Shown here piece by piece: positions 4,031 to 57,160 of a stretch of DNA of 64,000 nt. The DNA comes from Alphaproteobacteria bacterium (lineage in GTDB: Bacteria > Pseudomonadota > Alphaproteobacteria > CAAGCB01 > CAG-977). The stretch's first letter is position 1; each line of letters starts with the position of its first letter. The notes beneath the pieces were generated by a model. It did no database searches. It had not been told where the DNA came from and was given only the letters and a program-made list of their open reading frames with translations. Position numbers and translations under genes: made by a program. The stretch lies in assembly GCA_900768185.1 (NCBI GenBank), contig CAAGCB010000029.1:74575-138574 (forward strand). The letters are read 5' to 3'.

Positions 4031-4110
4031 TATCCGAGATAAAAAATCACAAAACGCTTGAAAATTTCTTTTAATATTACATAATGTTATTAAAAGAAAG
4101 GAGGAAAAGC

Positions 4111-4428
4111 ATGACGAAAACGGACGTCCAACGTGTGTCGCCGCGCAAAAAAAAGGTCGAAAAGGATTTTTCCCCCGCGGAAATGGGGGACTATTTGATT
4201 TCGACGGTCAGGGAAGTGATAGAGGTCGCGCGCAAACCCGTACCCGTTTTGGATAAAAACGGGACGCCGACGGGGGCGGTCGAATACCAGTCTGCGACGG
4301 TGTTAAAGGCGTGCGAGCTGATGGCGAAACTGATGGGAACGATTCGGGAAACGGACGCGAAGGGCGTTTCGGTGCAAATTGTTTCCTATCGCGACGCGGA
4401 CAATGACGGCGCGCCGGAACAGGCGTAA
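4111..4428 (+). CDS. Phage terminase small subunit-like protein (Terminase_2-like C-terminal signature), orphan
   Basis: An AGGAGG RBS lies 6 nt before the ATG at 4111. The C-terminal VLKACELMAKLMGTIRETDAKGVSVQIV resembles the TerS signature (KAxELLGKHLGMF.D+VE). The promoter region 4031..4110 is AT-rich. No other phage genes are nearby. Confidence 0.35.
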   Translation: MTKTDVQRVSPRKKKVEKDFSPAEMGDYLISTVREVIEVARKPVPVLDKNGTPTGAVEYQSATVLKACELMAKLMGTIRETDAKGVSVQIVSYRDADNDGAPEQA

Positions 4429-4440
4429 AAAAAACGCTCG

Positions 4441-4480
4441 CCGATTTTTTTCGGCGGGCGTTTGTTTTGAAAACGGCGGA
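4441..4480. terminator. Bidirectional rho-independent terminator between the TerS-like gene and gcrA
   Basis: Stem ACGCTCGCCGA / TCGGCGGGCGT (1 mismatch), loop TTTTTTT, followed by TTGTTTTG. Confidence 0.5.
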
Positions 4481-4484
4481 CGAT

Positions 4485-4940
4485 TCAGCGCGACGATTTT
4501 GTCGTGACATAAGCCATTTCGGCGTGTTCGGCGCAATAAGGCTTGTCGGGCAACGCCTGCTTTCCGCAGAAGTGAAAGTCTGCGTCCTTCGGGTCGCCGA
4601 TCGGCCAGCGGCAGGACGTCATCGTCAAATCGTTGACGGTGAACAATTTTTTCTTTTCTTTTTTATCGGCTGATTTTTTTGCGGGCGCGGGTTTGGCGTC
4701 AACGGTTTTCTTTACTTCCGCGGCTTTTTCCCGTTCGACGGGGGCGGTCGCGGGCTGTTCCGGTTGCGGTTCGTCTTCGCCGCGGCGAATGGGGGACGGT
4801 CTGCTGTCCAATTTCAAACGGTGCGCTTTGCCGACGACGGCGTTTTTCGATACGCCCAGCGCTTTGCCGATTTCACCCGTCGTCAAGCCTTGATCCCACA
4901 ATTTTTTCAGTTCTTCAACCTGTTCGTCCGTCCAACCCAT
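4485..4940 (-). CDS. gcrA: Cell-cycle regulator GcrA
   Basis: MGWTDEQVEELKKLWDQGLTTGEIGKALGVSKNAVVGKAHRLKL plus C-terminal CRWPIGDP...FCG...YCAEH, the hallmark GcrA architecture. Confidence 0.85.
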   Translation of the reverse strand: MGWTDEQVEELKKLWDQGLTTGEIGKALGVSKNAVVGKAHRLKLDSRPSPIRRGEDEPQPEQPATAPVEREKAAEVKKTVDAKPAPAKKSADKKEKKKLFTVNDLTMTSCRWPIGDPKDADFHFCGKQALPDKPYCAEHAEMAYVTTKSSR

Positions 4941-9228: not shown

Positions 9229-9879
9229 ATGGTGGAAAGAAAAATTCCGGAAACCTTGGACGAGGCGTACAAGCTGGCGGCGGAAGCAAAGCCCGCTTTG
9301 GACTCTTTCGGCGAACGGCTGGCTGAACGCCTCGGGTGCGAATTTCAATCCGCGCCGTTGAAGGGACGCGAACGCGCCGAGGAAAAGCTGAAAACGAAAT
9401 ACCGCGGCGATATGTCGCAATTACAGGATTTGGCGCGCGGACGATTGATTTGCGACACTTTGGAACAAATCGACGAAGTGAAAAAAATCATTGAAGCCCA
9501 TGTCAAACCCGTTCGCGCCGTGGATCGCATGGACAAGCCGACCGAAAACGGCTACCGTGATGTAAAATACGTTTTGCCCGCGCCGAACGGCGGCGTCGTC
9601 GAAATGCAGATTCAGCTGAGGGATTTGGATCGCGCTGACAAGATGACCCATAAGGAATACGAAAAAATCCGCGCCATTACCGCAGGGGCGAAAGATCGTC
9701 CGTTGACGGAAGCCGAACAAAAAGAAATCGCTCTGCGTCAGAAACGCTGCAAGGAGCTGTACGTCAACGCCGCGCTTGATTACAACAAACGCACGACGGG
9801 ACGCAAGTTGAAAGTTGAAGGAAAGCCGCAGTCGGCTCTGATGTTGCAAGCGAAAAACGCAAAGATCGGAGGGCGCTGA
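9229..9879 (+). CDS. RelA/SpoT-domain nucleotidyltransferase (small alarmone synthetase-like; toxSAS candidate)
   Basis: SAS synthetase motifs in order: KGRERAEEKLKTKYRG (G-loop-like R/K cluster), DLARGRLIC (D-x-x-G-x-R), GYRDVKYVL (GY+S.H-like) and VVEMQIQLRDL (EIQIRT-like). The protein is 216 aa and single-domain. Confidence 0.6.
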   Translation: MVERKIPETLDEAYKLAAEAKPALDSFGERLAERLGCEFQSAPLKGRERAEEKLKTKYRGDMSQLQDLARGRLICDTLEQIDEVKKIIEAHVKPVRAVDRMDKPTENGYRDVKYVLPAPNGGVVEMQIQLRDLDRADKMTHKEYEKIRAITAGAKDRPLTEAEQKEIALRQKRCKELYVNAALDYNKRTTGRKLKVEGKPQSALMLQAKNAKIGGR

Positions 9880-10073
9880 TGGGAAAAGTGACGGTTCGTT
9901 ATTTCAAGGTCGGGGTCGTTCCCGTCAAAATTGAATACACCGAATACGGCGCGCGGGCGGCGTATGTGATGGCAGACGGCGCGTTTAAAATCGACAACGC
10001 CTATATCGCCGAGGTCGCCCGGGGCGAAGATGTCGAGGAACTGACCAAGGCGGCGTTTGAAAAGCTGCTTTAA
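9879..10073 (+). CDS. 64-aa hypothetical protein translationally coupled to the SAS gene (candidate antitoxin/partner)
   Basis: The start overlaps the SAS stop as TGATG. GC3 is about 69%, consistent with coding. No recognisable domain. Confidence 0.5.
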   Translation: MGKVTVRYFKVGVVPVKIEYTEYGARAAYVMADGAFKIDNAYIAEVARGEDVEELTKAAFEKLL

Positions 10074-10107
10074 ATTCAAGCCTTTTTCAATCGTTTTCAT
10101 CATTTTC

Positions 10108-10140
10108 GGGGGACAAAAACATTTTGTCCCCCGTTTTTAT
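10108..10140 (+). terminator. Rho-independent terminator after the SAS module
   Basis: Perfect 11-bp stem GGGGGACAAAA / TTTTGTCCCCC with a 3-nt loop, followed by GTTTTTAT. Confidence 0.65.
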
Positions 10141-10149
10141 ATTGCCCGA

Positions 10150-10414
10150 AAAAGCGGAATTTGACTATACTGCCTCTATTCCCGCCTTAAAAGCGGGACA
10201 GCGCCTTGGCGGGCGCTGAGCCGTGAGAAGCTCTTTTCAAGAAACAGGCGTTTGATATGAACGCCGTAATCCGTTTCGCATAGCGTGAAACGGAATTGTA
10301 TCCCCGATTCGTTTGAAGGTCGGGGAGGTTTTGGCGTATGTTCAGAAGCCCCGATTTGAATCGGAACGCTTTAAAGGTCAAACGATGACATACTATCACT
10401 AAACCGTCATCGTT
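10150..10414. repeat. About 260-nt tract of at least 8 consecutive short GC-rich stem-loops (REP/BIME-like array or structured RNA)
   Basis: Hairpins read from the sequence: CCCGC/GCGGG, AGCGCC/GGCGCT, GAGC/GCTC, GGCGTT/AACGCC, CCGTTTC/GAAACGG, CCCCGA/TCGGGG, CCGATT/AATCGG and ACGATGAC/GTCATCGT. Two near-repeat units CCCCGATT(CG)TTTGAA are present. No tRNA T-loop is present. Confidence 0.3.
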
Positions 10415-10760
10415 CGATTCCCCTTTTTTTTGAATGTTTTGCGGGCTTGGGACGGTTGGCGGCGTCGCGGGATCGTTTCAGCTGTTCAAGCGTTTTGTGT
10501 TTGCGCGGAATGACGACTTGCGTCAGGGAAAAGTCCCTGTCCTGAAACCGCGTCGCCTGCAATTCGACGCCGAACCGTTTGGCGATTTCGGACTGGCGCA
10601 AGCGCATTTGCTCGATTTCCCGCCGGTTGAACTCCAACCGTTTCAAGTTGTTGTTCAGTTTCAAAATAAAGTGAATGTGTTTATGCCGTTGATGACGGTG
10701 CGCGGCGGAGAATTGTCGCTGAAATACGAAGGACGTTTTAAAAAGGATTACGCCGATCAC
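10407..10760 (-). pseudogene. HUH-family (IS200/IS605 TnpA or REP-associated tyrosine transposase-like) remnant, N-terminally truncated
   Basis: HxH-hydrophobic motif HKHIHFIL, then downstream LQATRFQDRDFSL resembling the RAYT WQxRFxDHxIR region. Only about 25 aa precede HxH where about 60 are expected. GC3 on the minus strand is higher than for the antisense plus-strand ORF in the same phase. Adjacent to the stem-loop array. Confidence 0.3.
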
Positions 10761-10824
10761 ACGGGTATGGTGAATCTGAAAGTGAATTTCTGATTCCCGA
10801 ATCTTTTGTCGGAGAGAAAGGCGT

Positions 10825-12261
10825 TTATAAAAAAGGCGGGGAAAACATGCCCAACGCGTCGACGATGTCGGACGCCGTTAAATTACGGCGGTTGACGGTT
10901 TCGGCGGCGCGGGAATGCAGATGTACGCCCGCGCAGGCGGCTTCGAACGGGGGCATGGCTTTTGACAGCATGGCGCCGATGACGCCGCTTAAAACGTCGC
11001 CGCTGCCCGCCGTCGCCAGATTGAACGCCGTCGTCACGTTGACGACCGCGCGTCCGTCGGGGGCGGCGATGACGGTGTCGGCGCCTTTGAGCACGACAAC
11101 GCAATTCAGCGTTTTTGCGGCACTCATGGCTTGTTTCAATTTGCTTTTTTCCGTCATGTCGGGGAACAGACGGGAAAATTCGCCCGAATGCGGCGTGATG
11201 ACGGCGCGGGACAAATCTTTGACGCTTTTGACGAAAGGCAGGGCGCCCGCGTCGGCGACAAAGGGCTTTTTCGATGCGGAAAGCGCGTTCAGCATTTCTT
11301 TGGCGCGGGGTGTTTCCTTTAACCCCATGCCGATGACGGCGGCGGAAATTTTGCGGCTGTCCAGTTGGGTTTTGAAAGTTTCGGGCGTGTCGGCGGGCAG
11401 AACGACCGTTTCGGCGTCAAGGGCGAAAACGTCCTGTCGCGCCGCGTCGCAGGATACGCCGACCCAGCCCGCCCCTGCGCGCCGCGCCGCCGCGACGGTC
11501 AATCGGGCGGCTCCGGTCATTTCTCCCGCGCGCACCAACACCGCGCCGCGGGAATACTTGTTATCCGAGGGGGCGGCGGCGGGAACTGAAAACAGATCGG
11601 GTGTGTTTTCGAACAGAAACGGATTTTGACGGGCTACGATTTCATCGGGAACGCCGATCGGGCAAACGACCAAATCGCCGACGCGCTCGCGTGCGGGATA
11701 AAGGAAATGTCCGATTTTCGGGCGGCAGAACGTGACGGTCATGTCGCAAAAAGGCGCCGTTCCCGCGATTTCGCCCGTGTCGGCGACGACGCCGCTGGGA
11801 ATGTCCAAAGCGCAACACGGCACGTCCGTTTCGTTTAAAGCGTTGAAAAAATCGCTCAGGTCGCCGGAAATCGGGCGCGACAGTCCGATTCCGAACACGG
11901 CGTCGACGAACAGCCCGTTCAGCCGCCGCATCTCGTCCAATCGCTTGAACGACGGCGGGCGGACGGAACCTTTGAACAGATCGGCGTGATGACGCGCGGC
12001 AGGGGACATTTTTTGTTCGTCGCCGACAAAGGCGACCTCGACAAACCAGCCGCGCCGGCGCAACAGACGGGCGACGACAAATCCGTCTCCGCCGTTGTTG
12101 CCCGCGCCGCACAAAACGATGACGGGGCGTTTGCCGTATCTGCGCGCGATTTGGCAGGCGGCGGCGAAGCCCGCGTTTTCCATCAGTTGAATTTCAGGGA
12201 TAAAGCGTTCGCGCGTTTCCTTGTCCGCCGCGTACATTTGTTCGGTCGTCAAAATTTCCAT
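10825..12261 (-). CDS. nnr: Bifunctional NAD(P)H-hydrate repair enzyme Nnr (epimerase + dehydratase)
   Basis: N-terminal YjeF_N (VLCGAGNNGGDGFVVARLL) plus a C-terminal carbohydrate-kinase-like dehydratase domain (GDVLSGVIGAMLS). Confidence 0.8.
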   Translation of the reverse strand: MEILTTEQMYAADKETRERFIPEIQLMENAGFAAACQIARRYGKRPVIVLCGAGNNGGDGFVVARLLRRRGWFVEVAFVGDEQKMSPAARHHADLFKGSVRPPSFKRLDEMRRLNGLFVDAVFGIGLSRPISGDLSDFFNALNETDVPCCALDIPSGVVADTGEIAGTAPFCDMTVTFCRPKIGHFLYPARERVGDLVVCPIGVPDEIVARQNPFLFENTPDLFSVPAAAPSDNKYSRGAVLVRAGEMTGAARLTVAAARRAGAGWVGVSCDAARQDVFALDAETVVLPADTPETFKTQLDSRKISAAVIGMGLKETPRAKEMLNALSASKKPFVADAGALPFVKSVKDLSRAVITPHSGEFSRLFPDMTEKSKLKQAMSAAKTLNCVVVLKGADTVIAAPDGRAVVNVTTAFNLATAGSGDVLSGVIGAMLSKAMPPFEAACAGVHLHSRAAETVNRRNLTASDIVDALGMFSPPFL

Positions 12262-12339
12262 GTCGGGCTTCCTTGATTAGTGTTTGTTAATCTTTGCCCA
12301 TTATACTTCATTCGATTCAAATGTGGGGAGTTTTAATCC

Positions 12340-12960
12340 ATGTCGGTCAGAACGCCTGAAAACGTCAAGATTTTAGAAAAGAAAACGCTGTATAAAAAGT
12401 TTTTCGAAGTGGACGAATACACGTTCGAATATCCGTTGTACAACGGAAAAATGAGCTCGCCCGTTTCCTATGAGGTCATGGAACGCGGCAACGCCGTGGG
12501 CGTTCTTTTGTACGACCCCGATCGTGAAAAGCTGGTTTTTGTCGAACAGTTCCGTGTCGGCGTGTTTTTCGCGGGCGATCCCGAACCGTGGTTGCTGGAA
12601 TGTCCGGCGGGCATTATGGATCACAAAGGCGAAATGCCCGAAGCCGTCGCCGTTCGCGAAGCCAAAGAAGAAACGGGGGAAACCGTCGCGGATCTTGAAC
12701 CGATCGTGTCGTATTATTCTTCGCCGGGCGGTCTTTCCGAAAAAATACACCTGTTTTGCGGGCGCGTCGATTCCGAACGCGCCGCCGCCTACGCCGGATT
12801 GGAATGCGAAAACGAGGATATCCGCGTCGTCGTACTGCCCGTCGCCGAAGCGGAGCAAATGCTGACGGCGGGAAAATTCGTCAACGCCCTGACGATTATC
12901 GCCATGCAATGGTTTATGCTGAACAAAGACAAACTTCGTCAAAAATGGGGGGTGAAATGA
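12340..12960 (+). CDS. nudF: ADP-ribose pyrophosphatase (Nudix)
   Basis: Nudix box GIMDHKGEMPEAVAVREAKEETGE. Confidence 0.75.
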   Translation: MSVRTPENVKILEKKTLYKKFFEVDEYTFEYPLYNGKMSSPVSYEVMERGNAVGVLLYDPDREKLVFVEQFRVGVFFAGDPEPWLLECPAGIMDHKGEMPEAVAVREAKEETGETVADLEPIVSYYSSPGGLSEKIHLFCGRVDSERAAAYAGLECENEDIRVVVLPVAEAEQMLTAGKFVNALTIIAMQWFMLNKDKLRQKWGVK

Positions 12961-14096
12961 AAATGCGCCGTTCTGTATCCCGTTCTGTCAGTCTTGCCGT
13001 TTTAACTTTGTCAGCGGTGATTTGCGGGTGTTCGTCACCGGGGGATTCCCTGTTTAAAACGAATACGGAAAGATCGATTCTGAAATGGTCGACCGGAAAT
13101 TACGAAGACGCCGTCCACTATGCGCAAAAGGCTTTGCAGGACGAACCCGACGACGCTTACGCGATGATGGTCGCGGGGTTGTCCTATGAACGTCTGGGGT
13201 ATCCGAATCGGGCGCGCGCCTTTTACGAACAGGCGGCGCACACGGAAGGCGACGCCGTCGGCGTGTTCGGTTCGATCCGCAATACTCCCGCCGAGGAGGT
13301 TAAAAAAGCCGCCGCAGAACGATTGAACGCGTTGACGCTGACGAAAAATCCGATCGCCGTCGTCAATTCCGAAACGCAAACGGCTGTTTTTACTCCCGCC
13401 GCCTATGCCGAAGCGCGCGCCGCCGGTCAAACGACCTCTGCCGAAACGGTTAAAGGCGGACTGGACATGCTGACCGAAGGCGACCGCAATCTGGTAATGC
13501 GTTTTTTGACGTTTATCCGTTTGCGCGATGAAAAATATGTGACCGAAGACGAATGGCAAAAACGCCGCGCCGTCAATTTGGGCGGATTGCTGCCCTATAC
13601 GCTGACGCCCGCGGGCAAGGGCATGGATTTGCCGGCTCCGACGGGGGACGCCATTATCGGGCGGCTGAACGCGTTGCGTGAAGCGTTGGAAATGCGCGCC
13701 ATAACGCCTCGCGAACATGCCGCCGAACGCGAAATCATCTTGGAGGCTCTGCTGCCCGCCGAACCGTTTTACCGCATGAAGCCGCAACCCGTTCCGCAAG
13801 ATTTGTTGCAGGGCGCGACGGCTTTGCGCCGGATTGAAACTTTGCGGAATTTGGGGCTGATCACTTCGGCGGAAGCCAAAAAGGAAAAAGCCGCCGTCGA
13901 AAAACTGACGTATGCCAAAATCGGTATGACCGGGGCGGACGGGCAATCCAGACCCGAAGTGTCGAAATGTATTCAAAAATGCGTTTCCGCTCCCGCGTCG
14001 CCTTGTCCCGCGGCAAAGAAAACGCCTGTAAAGAAAAAATCCGCCGCCGTTAAAAAGAAAACGGTGAAGAAAGCTCTGCCCGCCTGTCCGTGCTAG
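12957..14096 (+). CDS. TPR-containing lipoprotein with Lys-rich C-terminus
   Basis: The ATG at 12957 overlaps the nudF stop as ATGA. Signal and lipobox are MKMRRSVSRSVSLAVLTLSAVICGC. TPR-like YEDAVHYAQKALQDEPDDAYAMMVAGLSYERLGY. C-terminus KKTPVKKKSAAVKKKTVKK. The track's 12756 start is a spurious extension. Confidence 0.55.
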   Translation: MKMRRSVSRSVSLAVLTLSAVICGCSSPGDSLFKTNTERSILKWSTGNYEDAVHYAQKALQDEPDDAYAMMVAGLSYERLGYPNRARAFYEQAAHTEGDAVGVFGSIRNTPAEEVKKAAAERLNALTLTKNPIAVVNSETQTAVFTPAAYAEARAAGQTTSAETVKGGLDMLTEGDRNLVMRFLTFIRLRDEKYVTEDEWQKRRAVNLGGLLPYTLTPAGKGMDLPAPTGDAIIGRLNALREALEMRAITPREHAAEREIILEALLPAEPFYRMKPQPVPQDLLQGATALRRIETLRNLGLITSAEAKKEKAAVEKLTYAKIGMTGADGQSRPEVSKCIQKCVSAPASPCPAAKKTPVKKKSAAVKKKTVKKALPACPC

Positions 14097-14123
14097 AGGT
14101 GGAGAAAAACGGCGATTAAAAAA

Positions 14124-14150
14124 AACGGAAAGCGTTATCTTTCCGTTTTT
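14124..14150. terminator. Bidirectional terminator hairpin overlapping the ankyrin gene stop
   Basis: AACGGAAAG-cgttat-CTTTCCGTT followed by TTTTCGTTTTC. Confidence 0.45.
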
Positions 14151-14707
14151 TCGTTTTCAACCGGTTCGTTCTCTGCCGGTTCGTCGTCTTCGGGACGATA
14201 GAGATTGAACAGAACGGCGACATGATGGTTTTTCAATTTCGGATTCCGGCGCAGATACTCATAGGGCGTTTTGCCTAAAATATCGGTGGTGTTTTGATCC
14301 GATTTGTTGTTCAGCAACAGGCGGACGACATCGGGATTGGTGTTGTACCGCGCGGCGAAAAACAAAGGCGTCCACCCCGTGTCCGGCGTTTTGGCGTTCA
14401 CGTCGGCGCCGTTTTCTATCAGCCAATAGGATACGGCGGGATCCGGATTGTACATCGCCGCCAGCATCAAAACGCTGCGCCCGCGATCGTCGCGCGCGTT
14501 CACATCGGCGCCGCGTTCGATGACGGGGGCGATCGTGTAAATGTTTGTTTTCGGATTTTGCACGGCGAAAATCAGCGGCACAAAACCCGACAGATCGCTT
14601 TCGGGCAGTTCGGCGGGGTGTTGGGCGGCGGCGGAAACGGCGGTCAGCGCGGCAACAAAAAAGCCCGCGCAAAAATGACGGGCTTTTCTAACGTGTTTGA
14701 AAAACAC
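14135..14707 (-). CDS. Secreted ankyrin-repeat protein
   Basis: Signal peptide plus repeated ankyrin motifs (TPLFFAARYNTNPDVVRLLLNN, RSVLMLAAMYNPDPAVSYWLIENGADVNA, TNIYTIAPVIERGADVNARD). Confidence 0.7.
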   Translation of the reverse strand: MFFKHVRKARHFCAGFFVAALTAVSAAAQHPAELPESDLSGFVPLIFAVQNPKTNIYTIAPVIERGADVNARDDRGRSVLMLAAMYNPDPAVSYWLIENGADVNAKTPDTGWTPLFFAARYNTNPDVVRLLLNNKSDQNTTDILGKTPYEYLRRNPKLKNHHVAVLFNLYRPEDDEPAENEPVENEKTER

Positions 14708-14713
14708 GGCGAA

Positions 14714-14881
14714 TCAGCGCATTTTCGTTTCTTTGAAAACGACGTGCTTGCGCGCTTTCGGGTCATATTTCTTCAACTGAAGTTTTTCCGTTTTTGTGCG
14801 CGGATTTTTCTTCGTCGTATAGAAATATCCCGTTCCGGCGGTGCTTTCCAGCTTAATCTGCAATGTAGCGGGTTTTGCCAT
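14714..14881 (-). CDS. rpmG: 50S ribosomal protein L33 (C- form)
   Basis: [53 protein letters not shown]. The start is trimmed to the ATG at 14881..14879. No Cys zinc ribbon. Confidence 0.85.
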
Positions 14882-14929
14882 GACAAACCATTCCCTTAAA
14901 AAAATCAAAAACGATAGTCAAAAAATACC

Positions 14930-16459
14930 CTATTTTTCCATTGAGTCAAGCGAAAAATAAGTTAGCGCGCGTTCGTAGGCGTCCGGATTTGTCAAAAGCA
15001 GTTTTGCGACTTCGTCTTCGACGGGGTTGTCGGATCGGGGGCGGGGCGGGCAGGCTTGCAACGCGCGGCGTTTGGCATCGTCGTTTCCCGTGCGCCACGG
15101 TTTCAGACGGGTTTGCGGGCGGGGCAGATTGTCGATTGTCGACAGCGCCGCGTCCGCCGTGCAGATGTTCGGATAGATGCCGTATCCCTGCGGCGAGTAT
15201 CCCGACGGCAGGTGATAAGTCGCCCATGTCAGATGGATTTCGCCGCCGTCGGGCAGGGTGTCGTTCGCTTGAATCACGCCTTTGCCGAACGTCGGGGTGC
15301 CGATGACGACGCCGTGGCGGTATTCCTGCAAAACGCCCGCGAAAAATTCCGCGCTGGACGCCGTTTTCGCGTCGACCAGCAAAGCGATGGGATAGACGGG
15401 GCGATTGTTTTTTTCGGTTGAGGTGTAAGTTTGTTCCGTTTCGGGGGCGCGTCCCGTCGTTTTAATGACGCGCAGTCCCTCGGGCAGAAACATATCGGCG
15501 CACAAAACGGCTTGACGCAACAAACCGCCCGTGTTTCCCCGCAAATCGATAATCAGCCCTTTGACGCCCAGCATGCGGGCTTTGTTCAGGGCAAAAGCCA
15601 GTCCCGCCGCCGCGCGTTCGGAAAAAGCCGCTATTTTAATCGTCATCAGCGCGTTTTTTTCGTCAAAGAAATACGTTACGGGCGAAGACGAAACGGGCTT
15701 GCGCTTCAGCGTGCGGGTTTGCGTTCTGCCGTCTTTGCGCAGGGTCAGAAAGGCGTCCGATCCCGCTTCGCCGCGCAACAGGTTCAGAACCTCGACGCGG
15801 GACAGGGTTGACACGGGACGGCTGTCGATCGCCGCGATTCTGTCGCCAACCGTCAGATCGGACTGCGCCGCCGCGCCGTCGGGCAAAATCGACGTGATTT
15901 CCAGATATTTGCCGACGCGGCGGTAGGCGATGCCGATGCTTGCCGGATTTTTCAGCGGGGTCAATTCCGTCGGATCCGCGCCCGTGTAGTGCGAATATGA
16001 ATCGATTTTAGCCAGCGCCGCGTTCAAAAAGATGTTGTAAAATTCTTCCGCGTCCGCCGCTCGCGCTTTGGGGGAATAGGGGCGGGCTTCGACCGTCGCC
16101 GCCAAAATCAGACGCGACCAGCCCGCGCAATCCGAATCGTCGGGGGCGGAAAAGCTTTTCAGAATTTTGTCTGCGCCGAGAATCAAAACGCGTTTGCCGT
16201 CTTTGACAATGCGGATTTTATTGTCGATGGTCGACAAGGCTTTGACGCTTTCGAACGCCAATTCGCCCGCCGACACGGGAAACAGCGATTTTCGCGTAAT
16301 CAGTTCGCACGCCGCCTGCATGTTTTTCTGCATGCGCGCGACGGGAAAGCGGGAATCCAGCAGCACCGTTTCCCACCACACGGGAATGTCAGCCGTTTTC
16401 CCCGTTATCGGAAACAGCGACAACATCGTTCCCAGCGCGATGGACGGCAGACGACGCAT
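14930..16459 (-). CDS. ctp: Carboxy-terminal processing peptidase, S41 family (PDZ + S41)
   Basis: IIDLRGNTGGLL S41 motif, with a PDZ-like region upstream (GIAYRRVGKYLEITSILPDGAAA) and a signal peptide. Confidence 0.75.
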   Translation of the reverse strand: MRRLPSIALGTMLSLFPITGKTADIPVWWETVLLDSRFPVARMQKNMQAACELITRKSLFPVSAGELAFESVKALSTIDNKIRIVKDGKRVLILGADKILKSFSAPDDSDCAGWSRLILAATVEARPYSPKARAADAEEFYNIFLNAALAKIDSYSHYTGADPTELTPLKNPASIGIAYRRVGKYLEITSILPDGAAAQSDLTVGDRIAAIDSRPVSTLSRVEVLNLLRGEAGSDAFLTLRKDGRTQTRTLKRKPVSSSPVTYFFDEKNALMTIKIAAFSERAAAGLAFALNKARMLGVKGLIIDLRGNTGGLLRQAVLCADMFLPEGLRVIKTTGRAPETEQTYTSTEKNNRPVYPIALLVDAKTASSAEFFAGVLQEYRHGVVIGTPTFGKGVIQANDTLPDGGEIHLTWATYHLPSGYSPQGYGIYPNICTADAALSTIDNLPRPQTRLKPWRTGNDDAKRRALQACPPRPRSDNPVEDEVAKLLLTNPDAYERALTYFSLDSMEK

Positions 16460-16461
16460 AT

Positions 16462-18735
16462 TTATTTCCTTTTGCTTTTTTTATGTTTCGGCGCAAAGGG
16501 CTTTTTATTGTTTCCGCGCTTTTTTCCCCCGCGTTTCGATTTCGGCAAAGCGTTTTTTTCGGGGCGGCGGAATTTTTTTTCGCCGGAATCCAGAATGTGA
16601 AACAGCAGTCCGCCCGTGATGGGCGACGCTTCCGCCAGCGTCATGAAAACATGTTCGCCCAGTTCATAGGAAATACCTGTCGACGATCCGAACAGACGAT
16701 GGCGTTCTTCGTCGTGGACGTAATAATCGTGGGGCAGAGTCGATATGGGAATCAAACCGTCCGCGCCGATGTCGTCCACGGTGACGAACAGTCCGAAACG
16801 GCTGACACCGTTGACGACGCCCCCGAATCGTTCGCCGATTCTGTCTTTCAGATAAGCGGACAGATAGCGTTCTTCGGCATCGCGTTCGGCGGCGGCGGCG
16901 CGGCGTTCCGTCGCGGAAATGTGTTCGCCCAGATCTTCCATGTCGCAGGAGATGTCGCCGTTTTCGTCCAAAAGACCGTCGTTCCCCAGCCTTAGAGCGG
17001 AAATCAATCCGCGGTGAACCAGTAAATCGGCATAGCGGCGGATCGGGGACGTGAAATGCGCGTATTTTTCCAAAGCCAGCCCGAAATGCCCCAGATTTTC
17101 GGGGCTGTAGCGCGCTTGGCTTTGCGTCCGCAAAATCAGTTCGTTGACCATGCCCGCGCGCGGGGAACCGCGCACCTTGTCCAAAACGGCGTTGATGTCG
17201 TCATTACGCAGTTTGCCGATTTTGCCCGCTTTAATCCCCAACGTTCCCAAGAACGTCTGCAAAGCGGCGGCTTTTTCGGCGCTTGGCGGTTCGTGGACGC
17301 GGTACATCGCGGGGACGCCCTTTTCCTCCAGCGTTTCGGCGGCGGCGACATTCGCCAGAATCATAAATTCTTCAACCGTTTTGTGGCTGTCCAGCCGTTC
17401 GCGCGGGGTAATCGAAGCCACTTGTCCGTTTTCGTCCAGCTTGATTTCGCGTTCGACAACGTCCAAATCCAGTGCGCCGCGTTTTTCCCGCGCGGCATTC
17501 AAAACCAGAAAAGCCCCGCGCAAATCCGTGATGTGACGGCGCAGGTCTTCGTTCATTTCGGGCAGTTCGCCGTCGTAGACCCGCTGAACTTCGTGATAAT
17601 TCAGACGGGCGGCGGAACGCATCATCGCGCGGACGAATTTTTTGGATACCAACCGCCCTTTCTTGTCGATACGCATGTCGGCGGCAATACACGGGCGATC
17701 TTCGGCAGGGCGCAGGGAACACAAATCCGCCGACAGTTTTTCGGGCAGCATCGGCACGCACCGATCGGGGAAATAGACGGAGTTGCCGCGTTCGCGCGCG
17801 CTGTCGTCCAGAGGCGTTCCGGGACGCACGAAATACGCCACGTCGGCGATGGCGACAATGATATGCCAGCCGTTCGGATTGTCTTTGTTTTCGTCGGGTT
17901 CGGCAAACACGGCGTCGTCGAAATCGCGCGCGTCTTCGCCGTCGATGGTGACAAGGGGAACGGCGCGCAAATCGGTGCGGCGTTTCATGTCGGGCAGTTT
18001 CGATTTTTCCGCCTGCTTTAACGCTTCGGGTGAAAATTCGGTCGGTATGGCATGCAAATGCAACGCAATCAGGCTGGCGGCGCGCGGATCGTCCGCTTTG
18101 CCGACGATTTGCACGACGCGCGCGCGTCTGACCGGAGCGTTGAACGCCGATCCGAAAATTTCAGCGATGACGACATCGCCGTTTTTGGCTTTGCCCGCGT
18201 GATCCGAATCGACGATATAGTTTTGATGCAGACGGCGGTCGACGGAAACGATGCGTCCGCCTTTGCCCGATGTCGTGTCAAACACGCCGACGACGCGTTC
18301 GGGTTTGGCGGACAAGCGGCGAATCACCGCGCCGTGAAAGAACTTTTTGCCCTTTGGCGTCAGTTTCAACAAAACCAGATCCCCTTCGGCGGGGGGAGGG
18401 CGCAAACGTCCCAAATCGGTGATCAGAATTTGCGGTTTCGGCGTCGGTTTGTCCCAAATCAAAGGGCGCGCGACCAATTCGCCGTCCGAATCCGATCCCG
18501 TGATTTCGCATTGACAATATTCGGGCAGACCATCGACCGGAATCGTTTTTTTACCCGTCGAAAAGTCGATTTTCCCCGATGTTTTCAGTTCTTTGAGCAT
18601 GTCCTTCAGCTTTGCCCTGTCGTCGCCTTTGATGTGAAAGGCGCGGGCGATTTCGCGTTTGCCGACGCCGGCGTTTTCATTTAAAAACGCGACCAAATCG
18701 TCCATTCCGGGCAGGGGGGCTTTGGTTTTGCTCAT
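16462..18735 (-). CDS. rnr: Ribonuclease R with Lys-rich C-terminal tail
   Basis: RNB catalytic region (DFDDAVF...DRCVPMLPE) and S1 domain. C-terminus KRGGKKRGNNKKPFAPKHKKSKRK. Confidence 0.85.
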   Translation of the reverse strand: MSKTKAPLPGMDDLVAFLNENAGVGKREIARAFHIKGDDRAKLKDMLKELKTSGKIDFSTGKKTIPVDGLPEYCQCEITGSDSDGELVARPLIWDKPTPKPQILITDLGRLRPPPAEGDLVLLKLTPKGKKFFHGAVIRRLSAKPERVVGVFDTTSGKGGRIVSVDRRLHQNYIVDSDHAGKAKNGDVVIAEIFGSAFNAPVRRARVVQIVGKADDPRAASLIALHLHAIPTEFSPEALKQAEKSKLPDMKRRTDLRAVPLVTIDGEDARDFDDAVFAEPDENKDNPNGWHIIVAIADVAYFVRPGTPLDDSARERGNSVYFPDRCVPMLPEKLSADLCSLRPAEDRPCIAADMRIDKKGRLVSKKFVRAMMRSAARLNYHEVQRVYDGELPEMNEDLRRHITDLRGAFLVLNAAREKRGALDLDVVEREIKLDENGQVASITPRERLDSHKTVEEFMILANVAAAETLEEKGVPAMYRVHEPPSAEKAAALQTFLGTLGIKAGKIGKLRNDDINAVLDKVRGSPRAGMVNELILRTQSQARYSPENLGHFGLALEKYAHFTSPIRRYADLLVHRGLISALRLGNDGLLDENGDISCDMEDLGEHISATERRAAAAERDAEERYLSAYLKDRIGERFGGVVNGVSRFGLFVTVDDIGADGLIPISTLPHDYYVHDEERHRLFGSSTGISYELGEHVFMTLAEASPITGGLLFHILDSGEKKFRRPEKNALPKSKRGGKKRGNNKKPFAPKHKKSKRK

Positions 18736-56494: not shown

Positions 56495-56854
56495 ATGAAA
56501 AAAGTCATTCAGGAAAAACTGTATTTCGCGTTTCGCGACGCCGACGGCGTCCCCGCTTTTACGATTAAAACGTATGACGGCGAACCGGTGAATCCGCGTT
56601 TTTTGGTCAACGCCGACAATCATGTGTTTTTATTGCGCCGTCCGGAACAGGTGATTATGCTGGATAATTTGGGGGCGGAGTTCTATCCCGTTCTGACGCA
56701 CGCGTCAAAAGTCCGCTTCGTCGAAACGCCGGAAGATTCGTCCGAAATCGTGCGGCAGTACGATATCCCCGTCACGCTGTGCGAAACGGCGTCGCTGGTC
56801 GGAAAGCTGATAGTTCCCGCCGACGACGGCGTGTCAATGCAACAGACGGCTTAG
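56495..56854 (+). CDS. Hypothetical protein (119 aa)
   Basis: AAGGA RBS. An AT-rich promoter region precedes it. No recognised domain. Confidence 0.45.
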   Translation: MKKVIQEKLYFAFRDADGVPAFTIKTYDGEPVNPRFLVNADNHVFLLRRPEQVIMLDNLGAEFYPVLTHASKVRFVETPEDSSEIVRQYDIPVTLCETASLVGKLIVPADDGVSMQQTA

Positions 56855-57093
56855 GTGCGGGAAAAATAATCGTATCTGTCCGAAAAGACGGTCGAATCGG
56901 CGGCGTTTATGTCGTCGATTTCGTTTTTCAGGGGTAACAGAAAATCAAAATATAAATCGTCCAGTCCGGTCAGATAATCCGACAAGCTTCCCGTTTCCAG
57001 CGTGTCGTCCAATCGTTCGGCGACGGTGCGGCAGGCGGTGTGATTGTCGATAATCCGTTCGATTGTTTCCAAATCCCGTTTTGCGTTTGACAT
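56851..57093 (-). CDS. Acidic hypothetical protein (80 aa), convergent and overlapping the preceding gene by 4 nt
   Basis: RBS AAAAGGAAAAG. Putative promoter TTGACT-N16-TAACAT upstream. Confidence 0.4.
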   Translation of the reverse strand: MSNAKRDLETIERIIDNHTACRTVAERLDDTLETGSLSDYLTGLDDLYFDFLLPLKNEIDDINAADSTVFSDRYDYFSRT

Positions 57094-57160
57094 CGTTTCT
57101 TTTCCTTTTTAATAACGATATGTTATTTTTTTAATAAAAAAAGTCAAGCGCGGCAAAACA

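Follow-up and report, generated by a model that had tools for sequence, protein, structure and literature searches.

The small terminase subunit (TerS) of the gene transfer agent (GTA) RcGTA, gp1, is a protein of about 100 aa that starts at the oligomerisation region and has no DNA-binding domain, and the loss of this domain was proposed as the hallmark of a GTA-type TerS: with pac-site recognition gone but the ring-forming and TerL-regulating parts kept, sequence specificity would be abolished and random host DNA could be packaged (Sherlock et al. 2019, PMC6854486). RcGTA gp1 is described as all-helical, with three helices, and was modelled on the TerS of the T4-like phage 44RR (PMC6854486). 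A TerS without an obvious DNA-binding domain is also encoded by FpGTA of Faecalibacterium, a gut-borne and probably podovirus-like element that occupies more than one locus, with head and packaging genes in one and tail-fibre and lysis genes in another (Borodovich et al. 2026, PMC12946183). Known GTAs are few. Reported in 2026, FpGTA was the first GTA-like element of a human gut commensal and also the first podovirus-like one (PMC12946183). Here we describe a gene for a 105-aa protein resembling the core of phage TerS (the TerS-core gene), located in a 64-kb stretch of contig CAAGCB010000029.1 from an uncultured alphaproteobacterium (the window). We consider it probable that this gene encodes the small terminase of a domesticated, podovirus-derived and dispersed GTA-like system of uncultured gut and rumen Alphaproteobacteria. 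Our literature searches found no description of such an element.

The first-pass annotation of the window had pointed to an orphan TerS-like gene, possibly one of a dispersed GTA, from the likeness of its C-terminus to small terminases. Scans of the 105-aa protein against Pfam, PHROG and NCBIfam, including the Terminase_2 profile (PF03592) that had been proposed as a check, returned no terminase match even at E values up to 1, and the Pfam gathering threshold of Terminase_2 was not reached; sensitive methods were therefore needed. An exhaustive phmmer search of 1.84 billion representatives returned two representatives of the protein's own family and then about 20 weak matches (E values of 1e-7 to 1e-3 for the whole library) to proteins of 145-195 aa, aligned in their C-terminal halves. 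[quoted passage not shown] A profile-profile comparison (hhalign) of 33 family members with 24 phage TerS proteins gave a probability of 99.1% (E 6.4e-19) over residues 26-82 (57 columns, 37% identity), pairing YLISTVREVIEVARKPVPVLDKNGTPTGAVEYQSATVLKACELMAKLMGTI with YVL.TI.ETVERC.QAEPV.DK.G..TGEY.FDA..VLKGCELLGKHLGMF. The phage TerS profile in turn matched the SF6 small terminase structure 3zqp/3zqq at 6e-25 over its full length; the family profile, run against PDB sequences, gave noise only. Among cultured phages, tblastn detected Klebsiella phage genes annotated as 'terminase small subunit' (34% identity, residues 27-95). The relatives in IMG/VR (26-41% identity) were TerS genes of full length (149-198 aa) that include the N-terminal HTH, and most of those inspected were followed directly by an open reading frame (ORF) of the size of the large terminase subunit (TerL) and then by a portal-sized ORF. 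An AlphaFold2 (AF2) model showed a helix (22-40), a beta-hairpin (44-58) and a second helix (61-75), with predicted local distance difference test (pLDDT) values above 90 for residues 21-70. Structural comparison gave weaker evidence: the best Foldseek match of the model in the PDB was SF6 TerS, at E 0.14, and the top matches in BFVD were enriched in 'terminase small subunit'. The likeness to small terminases is real and wider than had been stated, and the first-pass reading of an orphan TerS-like gene, possibly one of a dispersed GTA, is supported, as to homology by the Terminase_2 majority among the phmmer matches and by the hhalign result.

The protein consists of a basic, disordered and variable N-terminal tail (residues 1-25), the core, a strand conserved at residues 85-95 (GVSVQIVSYRD) and an acidic C-terminal tail that varies. 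No HTH domain was found by Pfam or by alignment; residues 1-25 form the lysine/arginine-rich tail instead, and the Pfam matches of the phage relatives, which span profile positions 1-75, have no counterpart in the 105-aa protein. Judged by these comparisons, the protein is a Terminase_2 (SPP1/SF6-type) small terminase reduced to its oligomerisation core, the DNA-recognition domain having been lost. The lysine/arginine-rich tail in place of the HTH, the domain with which phage TerS reads the pac site, could bind DNA unspecifically. With G1P of SPP1/SF6 (PF03592; 3zqp/3zqq) the protein shares the helix, beta-hairpin and helix of the core and the signature ...DYVL.TI.E.VERC.Q..PV.D..G.PTGEY.FD...VLKGCELLGKHLGMF, and the strand that follows matches the region building the C-terminal beta-barrel of SF6 TerS. 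It differs from the Terminase_2 TerS proteins of phages in its length (105 aa against 145-195 aa), its score below the Pfam threshold and the absence of the HTH, and its gene is chromosomal, single-copy in each locus examined and without a TerL gene directly behind it.

As an HTH-less small TerS of what is probably a domesticated, phage-derived alphaproteobacterial system, the protein resembles RcGTA gp1. The suggestion that it might be of the RcGTA g1 type found no support: by its published description the all-helical gp1 is set apart from the Terminase_2-type protein with a beta-hairpin found here, nothing shows homology to g1, and the genes of the element are podovirus-like (T7-type portal, tail tubular proteins A and B), whereas the RcGTA particle is siphovirus-like. 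Likewise, gp1 is encoded by the first gene of a head-tail operon, by the TerL gene, whereas the TerS-core gene is monocistronic and lies apart from TerL; the head cluster of the relatives begins with a gene for a 107-aa protein and the portal gene and contains no terminase gene. FpGTA is similar in being gut-borne, podovirus-like and split, but its host belongs to the Firmicutes and its TerS and TerL genes lie in the main operon, whereas here TerS, TerL, fibre and head-lysis genes form four units with one promoter/operator.

The TerS-core gene is monocistronic, with its own promoter and its own terminator (Table 1). The 105-aa ORF, the AGGAGG ribosome-binding site, the promoter and the terminator of the first-pass annotation were all confirmed by sequence reading, a promoter scan and RNA folding; the span given there, 4031-4480, is that of the whole transcription unit, and the coding sequence (CDS) is narrower. 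In the consensus promoter scan, two such sites were seen in a 1.2-kb region where 0.7 were expected. Most orthologues have Shine-Dalgarno-like motifs ahead of the chosen start codon. The terminator hairpin has a free energy of -25.2 kcal/mol (z -4.0), and none of 200 shuffled sequences folded equally well. Because it is flanked by an A-run and, on its opposite side, by a T-run, the hairpin, whose minus-strand version was also found in the terminator scan, can terminate both the TerS-core gene and the convergent gcrA.

Ahead of the orthologues, the sequence was conserved at the nucleotide level despite differing upstream genes, with the consensus AATCACAAAAyG-cTTGAnn-N13/14-TTACATAATGTTA, and the promoter architecture was kept in at least 24 other orthologue loci with different upstream neighbours. 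The 13-mer that overlaps the -10 hexamer is a 6-1-6 palindrome, and with its conserved flanks TA and TT the symmetric stretch measures about 17 bp. With up to 2 mismatches allowed, this operator-like element occurs once in the window, as a perfect copy of the commonest form. We searched about 0.6 Mb of related loci, to which further loci were added, with the composite motif TTGAnn-N13-16-T.ACATWWTGT.A. It was found only before four gene classes, namely the TerS-core gene, an orphan TerL gene, a tail-fibre gene and a head cluster, and the other matches were reverse-strand echoes of the same palindromes only. The idea that the -10 palindrome is a general strong promoter of the lineage was rejected, since in the roughly 0.6 Mb it stood only before phage-derived genes. 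At the head-cluster promoter, TAACAAAATGTG, similar to the upstream element of the TerS-core promoter, lies immediately 5' of the -35 hexamer. A scan of IMG/VR with the promoter pattern produced at least 120 chance matches, none carrying homologues of the element. A 14-mer, ACAAAACGCTTGAA, that covers both the upstream element and the -35 hexamer at the TerS-core promoter is found again about 10.49 kb into the window, where it is not accompanied by the -10 palindrome.

The second gene class with this promoter, the orphan TerL gene, encodes a protein of 436-441 aa whose residues 4-418 matched PHROG_2, 'terminase large subunit', at 1e-27 to 1e-28 and that gave weak matches to the ATPase domain of P74-26 TerL. 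It had no Pfam match, PHROG_2 alone recognising it, and is listed in GenBank as 'hypothetical protein' (IJ752_05290, J5787_03040, CCZ21872.1). The protein retains every residue that is invariant among aligned bona fide phage TerLs, and we take HRRAGKDS, VVFSEYS, TPRG, AWDLG.GD, PHD and HDWTSHAADAFRYL to be its ATPase and nuclease motifs. Its gene is a separate unit that lies 0.5-8 kb from the TerS-core gene on either strand, sharing a contig with it in at least 14 loci, and is bordered by YbaK and TRL genes at one end and by a resistance-nodulation-division (RND) efflux operon or rsmJ at the other; between species the protein is 78-94% identical. The TerL leaders contain a GC-rich hairpin with a U-run between the promoter and the ribosome-binding site (-14.8 to -20.5 kcal/mol), and this leader terminator was also present in a more distant locus of the CAG:977 type. 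The third class was represented on one contig (L033) by a tail-fibre gene (PHROG_1640 'tail protein', 2e-31; weak Pfam Phage_T7_tail) paired with a gene for a tail-fibre assembly chaperone (PF16778, 6e-20). The pair has the same promoter, operator and leader terminator and lies 2.2 kb downstream of the TerS-core gene. The leader of the TerS-core gene is unstructured (-3.4 kcal/mol) and, unlike those of the TerL, tail-fibre and head units, contains no leader terminator.

The head cluster was reached through a search with the portal protein of a related prophage. The portal family found in this way (about 497 aa) comprises 20 clusters with a mutual identity of 59-99.8% (median 78%), and some of its members are named 'MAG: head-tail connector protein [Alphaproteobacteria bacterium]', MAG denoting a metagenome-assembled genome. 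Its context was seen in two contigs, L064 and L065, the latter of which ends within the capsid gene. On L064 a head-tail-lysis cluster of 7.7 kb is bordered at one end by tgt, dciA, a dsbA-like gene and atpI-B-E-F and at the other by a Sel1 protein gene and dsbD. It encodes, in this order, a 107-aa protein, the portal (3e-117), Bbp19, a scaffold-like protein, the major head protein (6e-80), the tail tubular proteins A (3e-57) and B (6e-197), an internal-virion-like protein, a holin-like membrane protein, an endolysin (1e-47) and two small membrane proteins; no terminase, integrase or replication genes were found in it. The promoter, TTGACA-N14-TGACATATTGTTG, is followed by a 12-bp leader hairpin with a U-run and then by a ribosome-binding site, and two terminator-like hairpins lie between genes of the cluster. 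A head-tail cluster without a small terminase of its own, which the first-pass annotation had proposed to look for in the rest of the genome, exists in relatives, behind the same promoter/operator as the TerS-core gene.

The related prophage is a complete one, of a temperate podovirus (contigs L059-L061, up to 622 kb). It forms one contiguous block of more than 20 kb with genes for an integrase, a ParE toxin, HTH repressors, a primase, Bro-N, TerL, a T7-type portal (PF12236), Bbp19, a scaffold, a capsid protein (PF19821), tail tubular proteins and internal proteins, including one of 1300-1650 aa. Its TerL is 73% identical to the orphan TerL, and its structural module is collinear with the L064 cluster (capsid 65-70%, portal 47%, tail tubular A 45%, B 36%). 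Upstream of the prophage TerL gene there is a non-coding stretch of 185-680 nt with a terminator-like hairpin just before a promoter-like site. Collinear and homologous as the structural modules are, the prophage has an integrase, repressors and a primase and lacks the operator and the TerS core; as the source phage it was rejected on the absence of the latter two. The nearest portals of cultured phages were those of HTVC010P-type pelagiphages (about 37% identical), and IMG/VR contained no close relative of the TerS core (at most 41% identity) or of the portal (at most 43%).

These intact prophages raise the possibility that the TerS, TerL and structural genes of the host are induced by the late regulator of an infecting or resident podovirus, and that they act as a decoy that poisons phage packaging in defence or divert phage capsids to host DNA in a satellite-like manner. 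The homologies to the prophage TerL, capsid, portal and tail tubular proteins agree with such a system, as does the succession of promoter and immediate terminator, which is the layout of phage late operons; at PR' of lambda, for example, the promoter is followed immediately by a terminator and the phage antiterminator Q is needed. No regulator gene was identified in the loci examined. We nevertheless regard such phage-responsive genes as quite unlikely, given that the operator motif is absent upstream of the prophage's own TerL gene and that the exact motif occurred once in 327 kb of related phage sequence. The chromosomal genes, which comprise those for portal, scaffold, capsid, tail tubular proteins, fibre and lysis cassette, also look sufficient by themselves; they are syntenic and core, whereas defence genes are usually strain-variable and located in defence islands.

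To see which parts occur together, we assigned proteins to a common MAG when their GenBank accessions were close in series. This suggests that two MAGs may hold the TerS core, TerL and the portal, namely J5716 (MBO4644262, MBO4644660 and MBO4644843, respectively) and J5787 (MBO4520184, MBO4520161 and MBO4521163), and that a third, IKR09, may hold TerL (MBR4127483) and the portal (MBR4127772); the TerS core was not seen in IKR09. 'Acetobacter sp. CAG:977' carries both TerL (CCZ21872.1) and the TerS-core gene.

In a scan of one genome per species, the TerS-core gene was found in 25 species, and its family comprises 83 clusters at 90% identity, all of them unnamed. The carriers are nearly all uncultured gut or rumen MAGs, designated 'Alphaproteobacteria bacterium', 'Rhodospirillales' or 'Rhodospirillaceae', with 'Acetobacter sp. 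CAG:977' in addition; we take the host clade to be the GTDB order RF32. The gene order in 17 loci is rsmJ (divergent), the TerS-core gene, ankyrin, rpmG, ctpA, rnr and topA. Identity to the window protein is 66-87%, compared with 65-82% for RNase R, 74-89% for TopA and 38-59% for the ankyrin neighbour at the same loci. Across 33 aligned family members, 27 residues of the core are invariant. For the core, the ratio of non-synonymous to synonymous substitution rates (dN/dS) has a median of 0.09, synonymous sites being close to saturation, and against the nearest relative it is 0.044. The identical protein was found on 81 contigs (162 blocks of the collection in the index). On these comparisons the gene is vertically inherited and under strong purifying selection. 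The first-pass annotation had also allowed for a prophage relic, and the empty family scans and the lack of phage genes nearby in the window would suit a decaying prophage or a functionless chance ORF. We give this explanation almost no credence, since the dN/dS value, the synteny across 25 species, the nucleotide-level conservation of the promoter and the identical protein on 81 contigs exclude it.

Two observations on individual orthologues may be added. In one sub-lineage (L005, L024, L028 and L029) the TerS-core variants are 139-168 aa long, with an N-terminal extension of 40-80 residues, MES(I/V)LEEAIRK(K/G)KKLRLV..., that is still without an HTH; the extension follows from the source gene calls and greedy ORF calls, and in L005 and L028 an alternative TTG start with a strong Shine-Dalgarno sequence lies nearer the core. 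The gene for the extended variant comes after genes for a type IV secretion system coupling protein and a flavoprotein. A contig titled 'Limosilactobacillus gorillae' (L031, CAVCSV010000007.1) shows the synteny TerL-rsmJ-TerS core-ankyrin-ctpA-rnr-topA, with a TerL about 94% identical to that of L025, and is probably mis-binned.

A GTA may be recognised by structural, packaging and lysis genes that are not accompanied by integration and replication modules, and by their vertical inheritance under purifying selection. The former combination was found in the relatives only; the latter is indicated by the dN/dS of the TerS core and by the identities within the TerL and portal families given above. 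In the GTA-like system that we favour, switching on the regulon would allow TerS rings to bind DNA without sequence preference via their basic tails and to recruit TerL, and host DNA would then be cut and pumped into small T7-like procapsids. Tail-tubular proteins and fibres would finish the particles, and the holin/endolysin cassette would free them. Because the palindrome over the -10 hexamer is common to all loci, we propose a single dimeric regulator for them. Terminators in the TerL, tail-fibre and head leaders and between the genes of the head cluster lead us to propose, in addition, antitermination as a second gate, in the manner of phage late operons and of the GTA of Caulobacter crescentus. 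To go by a title of Tran and Le from 2024, cited in PMC12946183, the latter is reportedly controlled by activation plus antitermination. The likeness would lie in terminators in leaders and inside structural operons, which imply an antitermination factor; the promoter signature, with its palindrome over the -10 hexamer, and the particle type distinguish the element from the Caulobacter GTA. Since its leader contains no terminator, TerS would be exempt from the second gate and would be made once nothing occupies the operator, or in larger amounts, in keeping with the 8-11 copies needed per ring; the exemption may reflect stoichiometry or an extra role of the protein. We further put forward, tentatively and with slightly more doubt than confidence, that the system may represent a third, independently domesticated, podovirus-derived GTA lineage of the Alphaproteobacteria, consisting of at least four units that are joined only by the -10 palindrome and the leader terminators, with TerS alone ungated.

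Several observations weigh against this GTA-like reading. The rest of the system was seen in relatives and not in the window's own genome: tblastn with the TerL, portal, capsid and tail proteins of the relatives found no match in the window, and accession series gave no link between the window's own species (protein P0228) and a TerL or portal; look-ups of the exact protein returned nothing. Two indirect points, the perfect copy of the operator and the dN/dS of 0.044 against the nearest relative, argue that the system may nonetheless be intact in the window's species. No source phage has emerged, as the related prophage has no recognisable small terminase besides lacking a TerS-core homologue and the operator motif, and the phages with the closest full-length TerS were rejected because their TerLs are unrelated to the orphan TerL. 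That TerS and TerL are cognate partners is accordingly supported by co-regulation, proximity and co-occurrence, not by shared ancestry. The present reading is drawn from sequence; for FpGTA, particle and packaging data exist.

The L064 cluster, as seen, also lacks counterparts of the prophage's large internal or ejection proteins, so that DNA delivery might be impaired. The same gene set could then belong to a PBSX-like or tailocin-like particle for killing or lysis, or to a long-lived defective prophage kept for a purpose other than transfer; PBSX packages DNA and does not transfer it (PMC12946183). We hold this to be very unlikely, because purifying selection on both terminase subunits argues that DNA packaging matters and because the ejection proteins may be encoded at a separate locus, like the tail fibre of L033.

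Finally, a strong promoter without a leader terminator would equally suit an abundant protein with another cellular role. The protein might be an exapted TerS-derived ring with basic tails, for instance an abundant unspecific DNA-binding or nucleoid-associated protein or a regulator of the regulon. The near-consensus promoter and AGGAGG sequence would agree with this, together with the housekeeping-level conservation, the position of the gene alone amid housekeeping genes with no packaging partner in the window, and the variable acidic C-terminal tail, which is the usual place of TerL-binding segments. We consider such an exaptation unlikely, since in the roughly 0.6 Mb searched the operator is common to the TerL, fibre and head-cluster promoters and to nothing else, TerL shares its contig in at least 14 loci, accession series twice suggest a portal in the same MAG, and the strand that forms the beta-barrel in SF6 TerS has been retained.

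Table 1. Features of the window and of related loci (L-numbers are labels of related loci or contigs)
Feature	Position	Strand	Basis or remark
TerS-core CDS	4111-4428	+	105 aa plus stop
Upstream element AATCACAAAACG	4045-4056	+	holds T.ACA half-site; just 5' of -35; kept in most TerS-core promoters
14-mer ACAAAACGCTTGAA	4047-4063	+	
14-mer ACAAAACGCTTGAA, second occurrence	10479-10502	-	
Sigma-70-type promoter TTGAAA(-35)-16-CATAAT(-10)	4058-4085	+	consensus scan, 10/12 positions
Palindromic operator-like element TA-TTACATAATGTTA-TT	4075-4091	+	overlaps -10 hexamer and predicted transcription start
Operator 13-mer	4077-4089		
Shine-Dalgarno sequence AGGAGG	4099-4104	+	6 nt ahead of ATG; direct reading
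Bidirectional intrinsic terminator common to TerS-core gene and gcrA	4426-4469 (core 4432-4463)	both	RNA fold
gcrA	4485-4940	-	Pfam GcrA, 1.9e-43; convergent neighbour of TerS-core gene
Variable island, window	~9.9-10.8 kb		between RelA/SpoT-domain gene and yjeF
Variable island, L006	16413-19279		
Variable island, L007	16247-19184		
ankyrin, ctpA, rnr, topA, dprA	14.1-22.5 kb		
Convergent ORF beside 80-aa ORF	56495-56854	+	119 aa
Possible second unit	56851-57147	-	relaxed motif search; TTGACT (57147-57142), 16-nt spacer, TAACATATCGTTA (57125-57113)
Acidic ORF MSNAKRDLETIERII...	57093-56851	-	80 aa; behind TAACATATCGTTA promoter
Orphan TerL gene, L020	1848-3155		
Orphan TerL gene, L025	6123-7430		
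Orphan TerL gene, L062	10001-11305		one of several further orphan TerL genes
Tail-fibre gene, L033	12488-13336		
Head-tail-lysis cluster, L064	9678-17413 (wider span 9567-17413)		
Portal gene, L064	10001-11494		
Terminator-like hairpin, L064	12343-12424		
Major head protein gene, L064	12425-13324		
Terminator-like hairpin, L064	13325-13382		

Around and upstream of the TerS-core gene, the window contains genes for Rex, TrmA, a response regulator, a methyltransferase, a UDP-glucose dehydrogenase, a RelA/SpoT-domain protein and YjeF. The ankyrin-to-topA block follows 10 kb downstream of the TerS-core gene; rpmG sits between ankyrin and ctpA in relatives. Farther on are genes for Dus, PepN, MutY, MotAB, TldD, MacAB-TolC, GlyA, NrdR, NusB, an outer-membrane protein and a lytic transglycosylase. 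Pfam annotation of most of the larger ORFs of the window yielded housekeeping genes only and no phage genes, and the earlier statement that no large terminase, portal or capsid gene is nearby holds for the parts of the window checked by Pfam and tblastn. About 6 kb from the TerS-core gene there is a variable island whose content depends on the strain, with an integrase and a GmrSD-type nuclease in one and a resolvase and unknown genes in another (L006 and L007 for the positions); the window and L008 carry neither insert.

The position of the gene beside the cell-cycle regulator gcrA had been called suggestive. The order methyltransferase, TerS-core gene, gcrA was found only in the window's species (L006-L008) and in one close relative (L009), while 17 other loci have the order from rsmJ to topA described above. 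The location of the ankyrin-to-topA block 10 kb downstream indicates that a local rearrangement produced the adjacency. A functional link to gcrA was therefore rejected, and the adjacency, restricted as it is to the window's species and L009, looks incidental and without evident meaning. The aligned TerS-core promoters, read by eye, contained no conserved CtrA box (TTAA-N7-TTAA) or GANTC (CcrM) site, so that the CtrA motif check proposed in the first-pass annotation was negative.

The relaxed motif search indicated a possible second unit in the window. Its TAACATATCGTTA element has one mismatch to the operator pattern and is followed by a purine-rich ribosome-binding site and an 80-aa acidic ORF, beside which lies a convergent 119-aa ORF. 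Neither ORF had a PHROG match or a homologue among the related loci examined, and we tentatively regard the unit as either belonging to the regulon or matching by chance.

What the window itself yields is modest, one small, well-defined gene whose function can be named with reasonable confidence. The scattered genes of the proposed system escape standard tools, the TerS core being without a Pfam, PHROG or NCBIfam match and TerL without a Pfam match; the promoter/operator and leader-terminator signature offers a direct route to the whole regulon. If the GTA-like reading is true, the 17-bp signature would let all components and the regulator be found by sequence alone. The system would then be a separate alphaproteobacterial GTA of podovirus type, in a clade known solely from bins of human-gut and rumen metagenomes, and would illustrate for a second time, independently, the rule proposed for RcGTA, by which loss of DNA recognition gives rise to an unspecific packaging motor. 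It would also mean that these gut bacteria exchange chromosomal DNA via particles of their own.

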